DNA from: Dehalococcoidales bacterium
GTDB lineage: Bacteria > Chloroflexota > Dehalococcoidia > Dehalococcoidales > JAFGLR01
Direction: 5' to 3'
Assembly (NCBI GenBank): GCA_016927955.1
Contig: JAFGLR010000008.1
Coordinates: 1-50,154, forward strand
Length of the DNA stretch: 50,154 nt
This document shows, piece by piece, positions 1-50,154 of the stretch. The number at the start of each line of letters is the position of its first letter. Position 1 is the stretch's first letter. Both the position numbers and the translations under genes were made by a program. The notes beneath the pieces were generated by a model. It was not told where the DNA came from and did no database searches. It saw only the letters and a list, made by a program, of their open reading frames with translations.

Positions 1-413
1 CCCCTTACGGGCTCTCTTTCTCTTCTCGGCGACATCCAGGCGGGCAATCGCGCGGCGTAAGGCGGCTTCCGCACGGGCTTTCTCGATTTCTGTATCCGAC
101 TTTACCAGACGTTCCTGGGCACGTTTTTTCGCGGCTTCCGCACGGGCGGTATCGATTTCATCAGCCCTTTCGGCGGCATCAGCCAGAACAATAACGTGGT
201 CGGGACGGACTTCCAGAAAACCGCCGGCTACTGCCAGCGAGATTTGCTCGCCGCTTTTCCTCAGCATTATTTCTCCCGGTTTCAGCATCGTCATTAACGG
301 CGCATGATGCGGTAATATACCCAACTCGCCTTCGGTGCCGGGAGCAACCACCTCATCAACCTGGTCGGAAAAGACCAGACGCTCAGCGGTGACTATGTCA
401 AACTTAATGGGCA

Positions 414-5442: not shown

Positions 5443-5688
<246 letters not shown>

Positions 5689-5704
5689 CTATTTATATAC
5701 TTAT

Positions 5705-6661
5705 TTAATGACCATGTTCGCCCTCAAGCGGGGCGGCGGCCATAGTCAGGAATACCATGGTTAAGCTGGAGAATATCAAGGCCTGGATAAGACCAACTAA
5801 AAATTCCAGACCGTAACCGGCAATGCTAACGATGTATGGGAACAGGAACGTTAACATCAAAATAAGGATTTCGCCGGCCAGCATATTACCGAAAAGACGG
5901 AAGGTAAAGCTTATGATACGGATGAAGTAACTTAATAATTCTAATATGCCTACTACAGCCGCTACGAAACCGTTCAAGATTCCGGTTATTCCCGGTTTAA
6001 ATTTACCGGTAAACAGGAGCTTGAACCCTTTTCCCAGCGGTCTAAAGTTCAAATACTGTTCCGCGAATTTTGCTTTATGTGTCTTGAAACCGACATAGGT
6101 TACCCCGACGAAAGAATATAATGCCAGAGCCAGCGGGACGTTAATATCGGTATTGGCACCGCGTAAGAAAGGCTCGCCGCCTTCATGCACGGCCCAGCCG
6201 AAACCGGGGATAAGGTTCATCCAGGCATTGACCATAACGAAAAGGAAAATACTGCCGACAAAGGGGAAGAACCGTCTGGTATTCTCTTCGCCGCCGACAT
6301 TTTTGAAAAAGTCCATCATACCGTTAACGAACCACTCGACCAGGTTCTGGAATTTACCGGGAATAAGCTTGGATTTTCTGGTGGCGAAAAAGAATATCAG
6401 AAAAATGACGACAGTGGTTATCCAACCGGCAATTATACTGTTGGTAACACCAAAAGAACCGATATAGAAAACAGGATGTGCCGGTAACGTTATCTCAGAC
6501 AGAGGGACTATCATCCAATGGGGAAGAGCTTCATGTGCAGATGGTAAGACTGCTTTGCCGATTGGTCCGGCGATAAACCCGACTGCAAAAAGAGCAATGG
6601 TTATTACACCAATCGTAATAACCAGAGGAAAGGAGCAACCTAAACATCCCTTTTTTTTCAC
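5705..6661 (-). CDS. atpB: F0F1 ATP synthase subunit a
   Basis: 318-aa polytopic protein with the essential-Arg motif FRLFGNMLAGE. GTG start at 6661 overlaps the stop of the upstream small gene (TAGTG). Confidence 0.9.
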   Translation of the reverse strand: MKKKGCLGCSFPLVITIGVITIALFAVGFIAGPIGKAVLPSAHEALPHWMIVPLSEITLPAHPVFYIGSFGVTNSIIAGWITTVVIFLIFFFATRKSKLIPGKFQNLVEWFVNGMMDFFKNVGGEENTRRFFPFVGSIFLFVMVNAWMNLIPGFGWAVHEGGEPFLRGANTDINVPLALALYSFVGVTYVGFKTHKAKFAEQYLNFRPLGKGFKLLFTGKFKPGITGILNGFVAAVVGILELLSYFIRIISFTFRLFGNMLAGEILILMLTFLFPYIVSIAGYGLEFLVGLIQALIFSSLTMVFLTMAAAPLEGEHGH

Positions 6662-7009: not shown

Positions 7010-7136
7010 GATAAATTCACGCTTAAATCAGGTAAAAAGCATTATTATTCGATAATATCGGACTAATAACCTAAAATAAGTAGCACTAAAGTCTTAGAAA
7101 ACAGTCCCTTAAAGCAAAAGGAATTGCTTGGAAAAC

Positions 7137-11398: not shown

Positions 11399-13159
11399 AT
11401 GAGTGTTATCGAAGAAGTTAAGCAGCGGACGGATATCGCCGAGGTTATCGGGCAGTTCACCAAGTTAACCAAAGCGGGTAAAACATACCGTGGTTTATGC
11501 CCGTTTCATACGGAAAAGACACCTTCGTTTTTCGTCTATCCGGACCAGCAAAGCTGGCATTGTTTCGGTGCCTGTAATACCGGCGGCGATGTTTTTTCTT
11601 TCATTATGAAGAAACAGGGTATCGAGTTCGGGGAAGCCCTGCGCTACCTGGCGGAACGAGCCGGTGTTACCTTACCCGCTTACCACGAGCGGGAAGGCGA
11701 AAAGGATGAGAAAGAGCGTCTCTTACAAATCAACCGTACCGCCGCCGAATATTATCACCAGCTCTTGAAGACACCAGCGGCCAAACAGGCAAGAGATTAT
11801 CTGGAAGAGCGAGGTTTAACTGCGGAAACCATGGTGAAATTCCAGCTCGGTTACGCCCCTGACAACTGGGAAGTCCTGAAAAATTACCTTATGGACAAAG
11901 GTTACACGGAAAAGGAACTGCTGCAGGGCGGGTTAATCAACCGCTCCGATACCGGTAATAAGACTTATGACCGCTTCCGCCATAAAATTATGTTTCCTAT
12001 TTGCGATATTAAAGGAAATGTAACCGGCTTCGGGGCGAGGGTACTGGATGATTCGCTGCCCAAATATATCAACTCGCCGCAAACCCCGGTATTTGACAAG
12101 AGCGGCAGTCTGTATGGAATAAATAATGCCGCCGAAGCGATAAGGAAAGCAGATGTGGCAATATTCGTCGAAGGTTATCTGGATGTGATAATACCCCACC
12201 AGTACGGTTTTAATAATGTCATCGCTTCGATGGGGACTTCAATAACCGAAAGACAAATCAGTACGGTTAAAAGGCTGACAACGAATGTAGCACTGGCTCT
12301 CGATGCGGATGCTGCCGGAGAAGAGGCAATGCTGCGGACGGTGCAGTATGAAAACCTGCTCAATAATGAAGTAAAAGTCGTCCTTCTGCCGGAAGGCAAA
12401 GACCCGGACGAAGTGATAAAGGAAGATGCTGCCGTCTGGCAAAAGCTGGTAGCAGAAGCCATTCCGGTTGTGGATTTTACCATTAAGACCGCTACCGCCG
12501 GACTGGATTTAAGCAAAGTAAAAGATAAAACGGTTGCGGAGGGAAAGCTCTTACCGGTAATCGCCGGTATTAATAATGATGTCAGAAGAGACCATTATCT
12601 GGAACAACTACGGCTGATGACCGGTTCCAGCTACCGCGGCATGCAGATGGCTTTAAACAAAATAAAAGGCGGGGCGAAAACCGGTAAAGTAGAAACTGAA
12701 ACTACAAAAATTGTGCAGTCGTCATTATCTAATCCGGTAGAAGAATATTTACTTTCGCTTTTGGTACAGCACCCGGAAATTAAGGATTTGGCAGCAGAAT
12801 TGCCGGCAGAATATTTTGAAAGCACCGAAAACCGGGAAATATTTCTGGCGTGGCGAAATAACCAGGAACTTGAGTTGCTGAAAGAGCAACTTGACAATAG
12901 TATACGAGAACATCTTCAATATTTAGTGGAGAAAAAAATACCGGCATCCCATCTCGAACAGAAATATACTGACTGCAGCTTAAGACTGCGGGAAAAGTAC
13001 TCGCGCCATTTAGAGCGAAAAAAGGCGCAGGTTTTGGCTTTGGAGAGGGAAACGGGCGGAACCGATGCTGAATTAGCTAAACTTGAAGAACAGGGTATTA
13101 GTGCTTCTGCTACTTTAAGAGATGTCTTTGCTCAGCGGAGTTTGCACCAGAAGGGGTAA
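11399..13159 (+). CDS. dnaG: DNA primase
   Basis: ORF track 11345..13159 (TTG). Preferred start is ATG 11399 ([18 protein letters not shown]), with ATG 11387 as an alternative. Zinc finger [25 protein letters not shown], Toprim EGYLDV ... [10 protein letters not shown]. Confidence 0.9.
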   Translation: [586 protein letters not shown]

Positions 13160-47978: not shown

Positions 47979-48026
47979 AACATATACCGTTTTTTAATTA
48001 ATGCATGGGAAAAAGACTGGTTAAGC

Positions 48027-48056
48027 TTGACTTTCAAGCTTAAAATATTCGATAAT
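48027..48056 (+). promoter_or_regulatory. Candidate promoter for tRNA-Asn
   Basis: TTGACT (48027-48032), 18 nt, GATAAT (48051-48056), 40 nt upstream of the tRNA. The -35 sits inside the 19-bp palindrome AAGCTTGActtTCAAGCTT (48023-48041). Confidence 0.35.
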
Positions 48057-48096
48057 CATACTTGGTATTTTCCTCAATTTAATCATATTCAAATGT

Positions 48097-48171
48097 TCCC
48101 CGATAGCTCAACGGTAGAGCGGGCGGCTGTTAACCGCTAGGTTCAAGGTTCGAATCCTTGTCGGGGAGCCA
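48097..48171 (+). tRNA. tRNA-Asn (anticodon GTT), CCA encoded
   Basis: Folded by hand. Acceptor TCCCCGA/TCGGGGA, D stem GCTC/GAGC, anticodon stem GGCGG/CCGCT with loop CTGTTAA, 5-nt variable loop, T arm CAAGG-TTCGAAT-CCTTG, discriminator G, CCA. Total 75 nt. Confidence 0.95.
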
Positions 48172-49742
48172 AGTTTATCAATACGCAGAACTTCCTCTGT
48201 AGTGGTTAACCCATTTATCGGTAATGGCATGGTATAGTCAATTACTACATGGGGTTCATTCAATTCAATCCTCTTAACGAAAGATCTCAAGAACGATTTC
48301 TGCTCGATAAAAGAACTGCTAGCAAGAAGTGCTTTCATACTTGATACGTATTCTTGTATCGTTTTTAAATTCAGTGATTGAGGAGACTCCTCATTCATCT
48401 CATCTAAAAGACCGTTTCGTTTCTCTTCAAGTTCTATTTGTTGAGACCTGAGTTCTTTTATGCGAGGTGCCAAATCTTCAAGGTCAATTTTTCCTGTTTC
48501 AAGAGCTGCATAGAGTTTGCTCAATTTACTTTTAACCTGCCCTAACTGTTGTCCGACCTCGCTAAGCTGTTCCTCAAAGTATCCACTATTCTTTACTAGC
48601 TCTTCGTTAACAAGCTGAACTAGTTGTTTGATATTCTCATCGGTGAGGATATTCTCTCTGATTCGTTCTAGAACAAAGCTTTCGAGTTTGTCTTTACTCA
48701 TCAATCGACAATTACAGACTTCCTTTCCTTTTTTCTGGTGCTGGACGCAATCGTAGTAGAAATATTTCCCTGATTTAGCCCAGCATCCGCTCATGGCAGC
48801 CCCACACTTTCCGCAATGCAATAAGCCGCTTAAAAGATATTGACTGGAGATAGTTCGAGGATGTTGAGAGACCGGGCGTCTCCTCGTGAGAAGCTGTTGA
48901 ACTCGTCCAAAATCTTCAGTTGAAACGACAGCCTCATGACAATTTGGAACTCGGATGATATCATTAGATGCTGCCTTACGTGAATTTCCATAACCATTAT
49001 TCCTAAATCTCCAGACAAGTGCACCGGTATAGACTTCGTTCCTTAAGATGTGGTTGATAGCTGTCGTACTGAATTGCTTGCCTGACTTTGTTCTAGTACC
49101 CGCAGCATTTAAGGATTTGGTTATTTCTTTTCCACCTAGACCGCCCACTGCCATTTCAAAAATCTTCTTAACAACGTTAGCTTCATTTTCATCGGGTATC
49201 AGTTTTGTCTTATCGGCCATTCCTATCTTTACTTTTGTTCTCTTGTAACCGAAGGGAGTAAATCCACCATTATAGAACCCCCTGCTAGCATTTTCTTTCA
49301 TTCCCCTAACAGTATCTTGAGAAAGGTTTATCGAATAAAATTCATCTATGACTTCAATAATACCTTCAAGTAGATGTCCTGCCGGGCTTTCATCTACCTG
49401 TTCATTTATAGAAATTACCGAGATACCTCGTTTTCTAAGCAACGACTTATAGAGGATAGAGTCTTCGCGATTCCTGGCAAACCTAGAAAGTTTCCATACC
49501 AGAATGGTATCAAAAGGCTTTTCCTTTTTCTTTGCCATAGCTATCATTTCTTTGAAGGCAGGACGGTTTGCAGTGCGAGCACTTTCGGCTTCATCTACAT
49601 ACTCAACTACTACGTCCCATCCACGTTCTAATGCATATTTTCTTAAAGCTTTTATCTGGGCAGGTATCGATAGGTCTTTTTCAGCTTGCCTTTCGGAAGA
49701 TACCCTAGCATAAATAGCAGCCTTTCCAAGATTATTAACCAT
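48108..49742 (-). CDS. Large serine recombinase (resolvase/invertase N-domain, recombinase domain, zinc ribbon, coiled coil)
   Basis: ORF track 48108..49766. Preferred start is ATG 49742 (GGAGG 5 nt upstream). AAIYARVSSERQ catalytic Ser, LVWKLSRFARN, CGKCGAAMSG...YYDC zinc ribbon, long coiled-coil region. The stop TGA lies inside the tRNA-Asn gene. Confidence 0.92.
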   Translation of the reverse strand: MVNNLGKAAIYARVSSERQAEKDLSIPAQIKALRKYALERGWDVVVEYVDEAESARTANRPAFKEMIAMAKKKEKPFDTILVWKLSRFARNREDSILYKSLLRKRGISVISINEQVDESPAGHLLEGIIEVIDEFYSINLSQDTVRGMKENASRGFYNGGFTPFGYKRTKVKIGMADKTKLIPDENEANVVKKIFEMAVGGLGGKEITKSLNAAGTRTKSGKQFSTTAINHILRNEVYTGALVWRFRNNGYGNSRKAASNDIIRVPNCHEAVVSTEDFGRVQQLLTRRRPVSQHPRTISSQYLLSGLLHCGKCGAAMSGCWAKSGKYFYYDCVQHQKKGKEVCNCRLMSKDKLESFVLERIRENILTDENIKQLVQLVNEELVKNSGYFEEQLSEVGQQLGQVKSKLSKLYAALETGKIDLEDLAPRIKELRSQQIELEEKRNGLLDEMNEESPQSLNLKTIQEYVSSMKALLASSSFIEQKSFLRSFVKRIELNEPHVVIDYTMPLPINGLTTTEEVLRIDKLGSPTRIRTLNLAVNSRPLYR

Positions 49743-50154
49743 ATTTGCCTCCAACTTAACTGTCATAAGTGTCGATGGAATTCTTCTATCATGGTCGGAC
49801 TTATCCGCTCGATTTGCGGAACGAGTAAGTTCCTATTGTTTCCGAGCAAAACCACCAATGCTACTTTGGATAGAGATCCTCGAATAACTAAAGGTGCAGC
49901 GATAGCTGTAAGTCCATCATCGTCTCTGCTATCGAAGATGGTGATTCGGCTGACCAGGTGTGGTTTTTTCGTTTTAAGTACCATATCAACGAGAGAGCCA
50001 GGAAGAACTGTCCTTCCTTTCCTTGGGAATAATGCATCCGCTCCACAAATATTAGCTTCAGGATCATTGTTATTGGCACTACCAGTCCAATAGCTTAATG
50101 TCCAATTATCCACCTCAGGACCCTGCTCATAAAGGGCGCTATATAGAAAAACAC
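48172..50154. mobile_element. Proximal end of a putative integrated element / genomic island at tRNA-Asn (continues past the window end)
   Basis: tRNA gene, then a serine-recombinase integrase, with a visible drop in GC right after the CCA end. Spot hand counts: 25/60 and 21/60 GC at 48181-48300 and 27/60 at 49021-49080, versus 34/60 at 47161-47220. The other boundary is not in the window. Confidence 0.6.
49763..50154 (-). CDS. Hypothetical protein, 5' end probably outside the window
   Basis: The frame is open from the window edge (..VFLYSALYEQGPEVDNWTLSYWTGS...) to TGA 49765-49763, which overlaps ATG 49766 (ATGA). An internal GTG at 50113 is the ORF-track start. No family recognised. It contains an acidic ITIFDSRDDDG motif. 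Confidence 0.5.
   Translation of the reverse strand, partial: VFLYSALYEQGPEVDNWTLSYWTGSANNNDPEANICGADALFPRKGRTVLPGSLVDMVLKTKKPHLVSRITIFDSRDDDGLTAIAAPLVIRGSLSKVALVVLLGNNRNLLVPQIERISPTMIEEFHRHL

Follow-up and report, generated by a model that had tools for sequence, protein, structure and literature searches.

Among the systems in which integration alters the gene of the recombinase itself, the SSV1-type archaeal integrases carry attP inside the integrase gene, and integration changes the integrase ORF. The att sites of serine integrases such as those of A118/LI, SPbeta and phiC31 are ~50 bp long and imperfectly palindromic, with a central non-palindromic dinucleotide. Moreover, in serine integrases of the A118/LI kind the outer zinc-ribbon motif lies about 5 bp nearer the centre in attB than in attP. 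This geometry of the outer zinc-ribbon motif in attP and attB is said to go back to Rutherford et al. 2013. In the mycobacteriophage BPs and its relatives, attP is located inside the repressor gene, the C-terminus differs between the free and the integrated form, the integrase is a tyrosine recombinase and the C-terminal change has a demonstrated regulatory role (PMC4557955). Lastly, DsiB, a ~540-aa serine integrase of the CcrB-like type, was described from the ssrA islands of Dehalococcoides by McMurdie et al. 2011 (PMC3146451), who located its insertion point in the T-loop and at one edge of a 20-bp repeat. These authors considered a function of the overlapped part of DsiB unlikely and raised the speculation that only on the circle, or beside another island, is the gene perhaps complete (PMC3146451). 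A state-dependent integrase end has been on record since 2011 for DsiB at ssrA. A literature search of limited scope retrieved no paper describing tRNA-targeting large serine recombinases (LSRs) as a clade, and the large LSR survey and the LSR target surveys reached by that search do not mention tRNA.

The locus described here is a tRNA-targeting variant of the DsiB/ssrA arrangement. It is located near the right end of the window, i.e., the whole stretch of 50,154 nt that was analysed (contig JAFGLR010000008.1, positions 1-50,154, forward strand), and its odd overlap of an integrase gene with a tRNA gene is best explained as a structural consequence of the position of attP. Beyond this locus, comparison reveals a large, little-described clade of serine integrases aimed at tRNA 3' ends.

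The integrase gene and its att sites

ARAGORN finds a single tRNA in the window, an intact tRNA-Asn(GTT) at 48097-48171 (+), which is the integration target and also matches Rfam RF00005 with 69.9 bits over 48097-48168. Its acceptor stem (48097-48103 / 48161-48167) is fully paired and its CCA is genomically encoded at 48169-48171. The integrase ORF occupies 48108-49766 on the minus strand and counts 552 aa from the mechanical start at 49766. The true start is probably M9 at 49742, which yields 544 aa (48108-49742); a GGAGG ribosome-binding site lies 5 nt upstream of M9 and the N-termini of homologues read MVNNLGK. Over residues 16-370, the Pfam domains follow the order Resolvase (PF00239, 1.7e-35), Recombinase (PF07508, 6.2e-23) and Zn_ribbon_recom (PF13408, 7.2e-16), the PDB matches, 4kis and 9dxh among them, are to the SPbeta YokA and A118 integrases and, by its domain order, the window protein is a large serine recombinase. 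The best NCBIfam match is CcrB, with 208 bits over residues 8-488, which does not reach the equivalog cut-off of 900 bits. An exact-protein look-up returned no public contig encoding an identical integrase.

The first-pass annotation had reported that the integrase frame meets no stop before the TGA at 48110-48108 and that its last 21 codons are antisense tRNA. Both observations hold in the sequence and in the list of ORFs: the stop (48108-48110, -) is the TCA of the tRNA D-arm, and the last 21 codons (LGSPTRIRTLNLAVNSRPLYR) lie antisense to 48111-48173. An open run of this length is unremarkable in itself because its chance probability is (61/64)^21, i.e., ~0.37. What goes beyond chance, as judged from the aligned loci, is the family-wide absence of a stop before the att core together with a constant register in 53/53 loci.

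Upstream of the integrase, the C-terminal part of an ImmA-like (Peptidase_M78-type) gene (49763-50154, -) runs off the window; it is 86% identical to a 309-aa protein upstream of the integrase in locus L001, and its Peptidase_M78 annotation derives from L003 and L166. The GC content falls from ~0.47 to ~0.40 going right across the tRNA. This drop and the presence of the ImmA-like gene upstream of the integrase indicate an island right of the tRNA that continues past 50154, of which the window covers 2 kb before ending. On the plus strand, no terminator-like site is found just after 48171; since the native tRNA terminator would have moved to attL, read-through from the tRNA could be antisense to the integrase gene. 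The metatranscriptome X22 has zero coverage here and is hence uninformative on read-through and antisense transcription. On the integrase strand, a terminator-like hairpin, TTAAGCTTGAAAGTCAAGCTTAA followed by CCAGTCTTTT, is located at 48021-48043 (-), just beyond the tRNA 5' end. It overlaps the -35 element of a promoter-like site that precedes the tRNA (48027-48056) and could terminate integrase transcripts within host DNA.

Comparison of these sequences with related loci leads us to a reading that we hold with considerable confidence, namely that attP lies across the end of the integrase gene, that the crossover falls in the tRNA 3' end and that the tail of the protein is a host-encoded by-product. 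A large serine recombinase would have targeted the 3' end of tRNA-Asn and inserted there an element with XRE, ImmA-like and integrase genes as one module. This element would begin at about 48166 and run off the right end of the window. Its attP would straddle the end of the integrase gene, with a P' half-site made of the last 9-10 integrase codons (GAAGTTCT...TGGCT), and the integrase would lack a stop of its own because this half-site consists of its own last codons before the crossover. After integration, the element would re-supply A72-G73-CCA and the tRNA would remain intact, and the integrase frame would then run antisense through the host tRNA to the first chance stop, here the TGA in the D-arm. 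The circular junction is predicted to read ...GAAGTTCTGCGTATTGATAAACTTGGCT|CCCCGAATAGGTCAATACACAGAACTTTCC....

Sequence comparison places the limit between host and element. In the Logan contig X4 the element recurs (1 mismatch over 48164-48300, ~98.8% identity over the other 1.85 kb) next to a tRNA-Asn that differs from that of the window by 14 mismatches and 2 gaps over 48091-48163; this tRNA is the L001 allele and is preceded by a tRNA-Gln. By this allele comparison, the host/element boundary is at or right of 48164, and the 18-codon tail PTRIRTLNLAVNSRPLYR (48111-48164, -), antisense to tRNA positions 15-69, is host DNA read in the integrated state only. The first-pass annotation had proposed such a restriction on condition that the crossover lay within or at the tRNA, which agrees with this boundary and with the crossover predicted at 48166-48167.

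Comparison of contigs also yielded junctions of the attP and attL types. In L171, which encodes P0054 (83% identical to the window integrase), and in L146, the integrase 3' end is joined to non-tRNA DNA, forming attP-type junctions. L171 contains an imperfect palindrome in which AAGTTCTGTGTATTGA in P' stands opposite TCAATACACAGAACTT in P. These same-clade junctions display the imperfect dyad of serine-integrase attP sites, with inverted-repeat scores of 22/30 (L171) and 20/30 (L146) that 0/20,000 shuffles reach in either case; the window itself holds attR only and scores 6/30. The axis of the inverted repeat lies between antisense positions 4|5, i.e., 48166|48167. From this symmetry axis we infer a crossover at 48166-48167, the dinucleotide G71-A72 of the tRNA (TC on the integrase strand), which falls inside the codon of Ser526. 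With a crossover at this place, the element would supply A72-G73-CCA, and tRNA positions 1-71 would be host-derived. The P' half-site, mirrored by the P arm of L171 and L146, would extend over 48167-48195 (-), i.e., over the last 9-10 integrase codons (EEVLRIDKLGS).

In the attL-type junctions L169 and L170, the host flank leads through TGGCT into the same P arm, and L172-L175 share this attL layout with an intrinsic-terminator hairpin as host flank. Alignment of attR (window), attP (L171) and attL (L169) defines an 11-bp common core, TCGGGGAGCCA, at 48161-48171, inside the stretch 48108-48171 to which the first-pass annotation had drawn attention; TGGCTCCCCGA is the sole sequence common to the three sites. 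Moreover, attR, attP and attL contigs encode different C-termini, in keeping with the suggestion of that annotation that the circle would give the integrase another end. A direct repeat of the tRNA 3' end was searched for over 10 kb upstream in about 50 loci, and a true one (17 nt) is present in L052 only; a 'repeat' in L013 turned out to be another tRNA gene. This near-empty result is due to a shared core of only ~11 bp and to islands that mostly exceed 10 kb. L003 had pointed to a symmetry centre on the left side of TGG, but the match (10/31) was put down to chance and rejected.

Two loci with doubled sites deserve separate mention. L040 contains two identical integrase 3' ends (at 2488 and 11559), 9.07 kb apart, the upstream one joined to P-arm-like sequence (inverted repeat 17/31); it is a tandem pair of elements, which gives an element size of about 9 kb, and its downstream tRNA-like target is rearranged. 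L176 contains two attL-like sites (at 7032 and 9969) 3 kb apart beside core genes, each laid out as a terminator hairpin, a tRNA 3' remnant without CCA and then the P arm. No integrase is found within 10 kb of them, and they look like relics of earlier insertions.

The last integrase codons are constrained as DNA as well. The Val codon of E-V-L is GTT in 44 loci, GTA in 9 and GTC or GTG in none (n = 53), and GTC + GTG make up 62% of the Val codons elsewhere in the same integrase genes. This synonymous-site constraint on GAAGTTCT (48187-48194, -; codons E-V-L), a candidate outer P' motif with predicted binding of the zinc-ribbon domain (ZD), points to a DNA-level role of these codons. On the side of the tRNA, the GTTC of the T-loop (48148-48151, +; GAAC on the integrase strand) is, by its geometry, a candidate outer motif of the B half-site. 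GAAC is located at offsets +26..29 in the P arm and at +20..23 in the tRNA T-loop, 6 bp nearer the axis; L052, the tRNA-Glu element that has the 17-nt direct repeat, shows a shift of exactly 5 bp; and the B' flank of L169 carries GGAcTTTCT 6 bp nearer the axis than GGAAGTTCT in P'. By analogy with the A118/LI sites, this suggests that the universal T-loop of tRNAs acts as the outer recognition motif of attB. If this is so, the clade would provide natural cases of LSR re-targeting, which is relevant to genome engineering. The palindrome GTTAAC also occurs twice relative to the CCA end, in the integrase 3' region at -39..-34 (window 48205-48213; GGGTTAACC on the integrase strand, codons G-L-T) and in the anticodon loop of tRNA-Asn at +37..+42 (48129-48134). 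Like the inner motifs, this pair is displaced by 6 bp from a mirror-symmetric arrangement; it is farther out than LSR sites usually extend and may be a coincidence.

The attP state and the HTH_ParB frame

In the attP state, the integrase frame continues in frame for ~115-135 codons (~126 in the clade of the window) without a stop. This open frame is found in L171/P0054, L146, L166/P0101, L167-168/P0097 and the fragment P0147, which belong to at least three integrase subclades, and it enters an HTH_ParB domain (PF17762) with 26.6 and 23.7 bits against a Pfam cut-off of 22.6. The P arm is translated as ...GSP-[NY]xSI[DH]RTFR..., where AGAACTTTC, encoding R-T-F, mirrors GGAAGTTCT, encoding E-V-L. 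Homologues of this HTH domain are mostly standalone proteins of 80-180 aa. In ~32 clusters of standalone HTH proteins, which represent the attL state, the frame stays open when followed backwards across the P arm and what remains of the tRNA ('[GS]SP-YKSIDRTFR'), and the proteins begin with a few residues of host flank followed by [GS]SP and the P-arm peptide. As far as these alignments go, the ~32 clusters are attL-state ORFs read in the integrase frame, and attP is, in the clade of the window, an in-frame joint of the integrase and HTH_ParB genes.

Whether this joint has a meaning for the enzyme is a matter on which we are rather sceptical. The free or tandem form could produce an Int::HTH_ParB fusion of ~650-670 aa, in which integration would swap the HTH domain for the tRNA tail, a domain swap to which we would give perhaps one chance in a handful. 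That the two states make functionally different recombinases, serving, e.g., directionality control or a circularisation-controlled expression of the HTH protein, is possible but doubtful. The in-frame open run into HTH_ParB above the Pfam cut-off, in five attP-state contigs of several subclades, argues for such a fusion, as does the frame that the ~32 standalone clusters hold open through the P arm. Moreover, in none of the 53 tRNA-bearing loci and none of the junction contigs examined does a stop precede the crossover, despite variable codons between EVL and G, and this absence could reflect selection for reading across the site. McMurdie et al. 2011 (PMC3146451) raised the same possibility for DsiB, and artificial Int-RDF fusions are known to switch the directionality of LSRs (PMC5737554).

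However, the five cases are not independent, since the shared frame is passed on as part of the attP module. L171 looks partly chimeric, and L146 contains just the last ~40 integrase codons. Other loci do not show the fusion at all: in L028 the HTH domain stands in another frame, with a T5 run instead of T3 in the P arm; in L177, of a different LSR subtype, a stop is located inside the P arm; and L040, L003 and L049 stop 17-38 codons past the junction, with no HTH. In L084 the integrase ends on the crossover, and nothing beyond Gly525 is needed there. The mostly standalone HTH genes, lastly, have candidate internal starts (ATG, TTG or GTG) near 'F-E-M/L-P' or 'AVF'. Taken to its full extent, the idea would be that the integrated form has a bare integrase with a junk tRNA tail and, at the opposite end of the island, a separate HTH gene severed from its promoter, that the recombinase thereby senses its integration state and that a cross-phylum clade uses the T-loop as outer motif of attB; it is a tentative proposal, and on balance an unlikely one. 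If a free-form Int::HTH_ParB is functional, it would represent a new coupling of recombinase properties to integration state. The att architecture at the level of the clade and the Int::HTH_ParB joint are worth experimental follow-up, and the window locus itself is explained by the position of attP across the integrase end.

Several observations were made on contigs of this group. In the Logan contig L171, the N-terminal catalytic part of the integrase is inverted relative to the rest (1-475 vs 583-2025), which may be an assembly chimera or a real inversion. In L001, a Pfam Gp3-like match (PF18897) is found at 5451-6431, and the element also encodes DUF3854 primase-like, DnaJ and AAA proteins; the Gp3-like protein would be a candidate excision factor if the phiC31 gp3 directionality factor family is meant. 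An attL-type junction adjoins a Cas12b (C2c1) CRISPR-Cas locus and an IS21 element in L172 (1-5227 and 10001-17136) and in L173-L175. From the HTH_ParB gene onwards, the cargo comprises a 112-aa protein, a 1086-aa ResIII helicase, an N6_N4 methyltransferase of ~1019 aa and Mrr-type nucleases. This set of genes resembles a defence island, and the part of the island covered by L172-L175 contains no integrase.

Variation of the tail across the family

The ending that the first-pass annotation had set apart is not special to the window locus. Among the best 120 protein homologues (55-98% identity), nearly all end in antisense-tRNA peptides of the same frame, following the pattern ...EVLxxxxxGS[PG]xx[IT]RT...AVNSRPLY[RH]. 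Scanning a single genome of each species gave 80 loci, which span Dehalococcoidia, Elusimicrobiota, Omnitrophota, Melainabacteria, Verrucomicrobia, Planctomycetes, Ignavibacteria and others, and IMG/VR contributed five in-family matches, with no clear circular genome among them. In 53 non-redundant loci from the scan and the five viral contigs, a tRNA is located on the opposite strand at the integrase 3' end, namely Asn (31), Gln (7), Glu (4), Met (3), Arg (2), Asp (2) and Ile, Ala, His and Val (1 each). The convergent orientation of integrase and tRNA, which had been regarded as unusual, is therefore the rule (53/53 tRNA-bearing loci). The codon register into the tRNA 3' end is likewise identical in 53/53 loci; seven loci without an encoded CCA seem shifted by one base because of the boundary placement of ARAGORN only. 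A universal T-loop serving as attB motif would explain the spread of the clade over at least 10 tRNA specificities.

Loci without a tRNA call but with a partial tRNA-like tail were considered as attP or tandem junctions, and this was rejected, four of them being tRNA-Asn with group I introns. These introns (Rfam RF00028, 72-86 bits) lie in the anticodon loop of the targeted tRNA-Asn(GTT) and are missed by ARAGORN; they are located on the minus strand at L085:11596-11830, L051:2041-2338, L024:11605-12057 and L036:2564-2801, in hosts from Omnitrophota, Planctomycetes and unclassified MAGs. In L152 (~6226-6312), L075 (~11550-11640) and the protein P0004, a tRNA-Asn-like sequence has the 5' strand of its anticodon stem replaced by a 16-nt hairpin, TCCCGACGTGTCGGGA or TCCCGACAAGTCGGGA, directly after GGTTAA. 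ARAGORN and Rfam call no tRNA in the L152 and L075 sequences, which could represent a pseudo-tRNA or a small insertion.

The overlap of the integrase ORF with the tRNA varies from 7 nt (L084) to 1102 nt, into and past the tRNA (L011), and the tail accordingly from 0-2 to >360 residues. In L084 the stop stands on the crossover itself ('LLG*'), so that nothing past Gly525 is needed in that lineage. The stop is located in a T-loop reading TTCAAAT ('I*') in L019, L052, L062, L079 and L081, and just past the T-stem in L004, L033, L038, L043 and L059. The mode, as in the window, is a D-arm stop with a 64-nt overlap, which is found in 20/31 tRNA-Asn loci.

Variation is equally pronounced among near-identical elements. 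When metagenomes were scanned with 33 nt of the integrase 3' end as the pattern, 30 contigs came back; they share this 3' end, and the tRNA-Asn that adjoins it occurs among them in at least 14 alleles. The alleles diverge directly past TGGCTCC in every case, and the 3' strand of the acceptor stem covaries with the 5' strand from the host. The tail reads GSPTRIRTLNLAVNSRPLYR in the window, SRGRTRTYDQAVNSRPLYH in L001 and X4, GSRGRTRTYDQAVNSRPLYH in L001, X4 and P0002, and GSPTRIRT* in L141 and L161, the last two stopping at ...IRT* because their T-stem reads CTAGG. A change in one T-stem base pair thus makes the tail 12 aa shorter behind an identical integrase 3' end, and P0001, a 98% identical protein, has the same ending. 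Short contigs ending in ...GSPTRIRT or ...GSGGWI were at one point taken for assembly breaks that mark the limit of att identity, which was rejected: the ending of P0001 is known from the protein, and contigs of the same tRNA allele (L004, L141 and L161) carry real stops at that residue, a TAG in the T-stem and a TGA in the T-loop.

Since tail length and sequence vary freely even in near-identical elements, the tRNA-encoded tail is best read as a by-product of integration, the alternative that the first-pass annotation had offered and that is now the better supported of its two readings. We infer that the 18 residues are incidental and dependent on the host allele, with no function of their own and no conserved part of the enzyme in them. 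It is very improbable that the tail is instead a functional extension of the integrated-state integrase, selected, e.g., for excision or stability. Such a role might be read from the frame, which is always the same through the tRNA, and from the similar tails (...AVNSRPLY[RH]) of the 20/31 tRNA-Asn loci that share the 64-nt overlap, but this likeness is wholly accounted for by the conservation of the tRNA, and neither the range of lengths across the family nor the 12 aa lost through one T-stem pair, with the same ending in P0001, fits an extension under selection. An artefact, be it a true stop lost through a sequencing or assembly error or a tRNA that is part of the element, has a negligible probability given the same junction in independent assemblies, the tRNA allele that switches with the host flank next to an element that stays ~99% identical, and the GC shift at the tRNA. 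As to these assemblies, the Logan contig of run X1 equals the window at 48143-50124 with 0 differences and breaks at 48143 because of shared tRNA k-mers (depth above 8000), and the JGI contigs L137, L138 and L159 have the tRNA junction of the window, L138 being identical over 75/75 tRNA bases and L137 having one substitution in the tRNA; the error that the first-pass annotation had considered does not appear in them. Nor did the comparison bring up the other two observations that this annotation had named as counter-evidence, homologues with an identical tail encoded without a tRNA and a crossover well outside 48108-48171. Therefore, with the tail read as a host-encoded and variable by-product, annotators should not count it as part of the enzyme.

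Comparison with known systems

The DsiB/ssrA arrangement resembles the window locus in several respects. In both cases, a CcrB-like LSR of ~540 aa is located at an island edge in the class Dehalococcoidia, a likeness established through CcrB and not through the DsiB sequence; the gene reads towards the target RNA gene; its ORF meets no stop within the island and extends across the att site into the target RNA gene; and insertion takes place at the T-arm/acceptor end of a tRNA-like structure. The differences concern the target, which is a true tRNA-Asn in the window and comprises at least 10 tRNA specificities among the relatives, whereas DsiB targets the ssrA tmRNA; the gene upstream of the integrase, which is ImmA-like and not the small serine recombinase DsiA; and the crossover, which the symmetry axis would place at tRNA positions 71-72 and which was placed in the T-loop for DsiB. 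In the CcrB/SCCmec system, an LSR likewise inserts into a conserved single-copy gene at its 3' end, but the window protein scores 208 bits against the 900-bit cut-off, the target of CcrB is rlmH and not a tRNA, and the window contains no CcrA partner.

With respect to the att sites of serine integrases in general, the outer motif of attB is shifted by 6 bp in the clade of the window and by 5 bp in L052, in agreement with the known geometry. Unlike in those systems, attP here spans the junction of the integrase and HTH_ParB genes, and the outer motif of attB would be the universal T-loop of tRNAs. The SSV1-type integrases differ in being tyrosine recombinases of archaeal viruses whose gene is split into two large parts, whereas in the window integrase only the region after residue ~526 is exchanged. 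Finally, the likeness to BPs lies in free and integrated forms that encode different C-termini, which the comparison of attR, attP and attL contigs shows for the integrase clade of the window.
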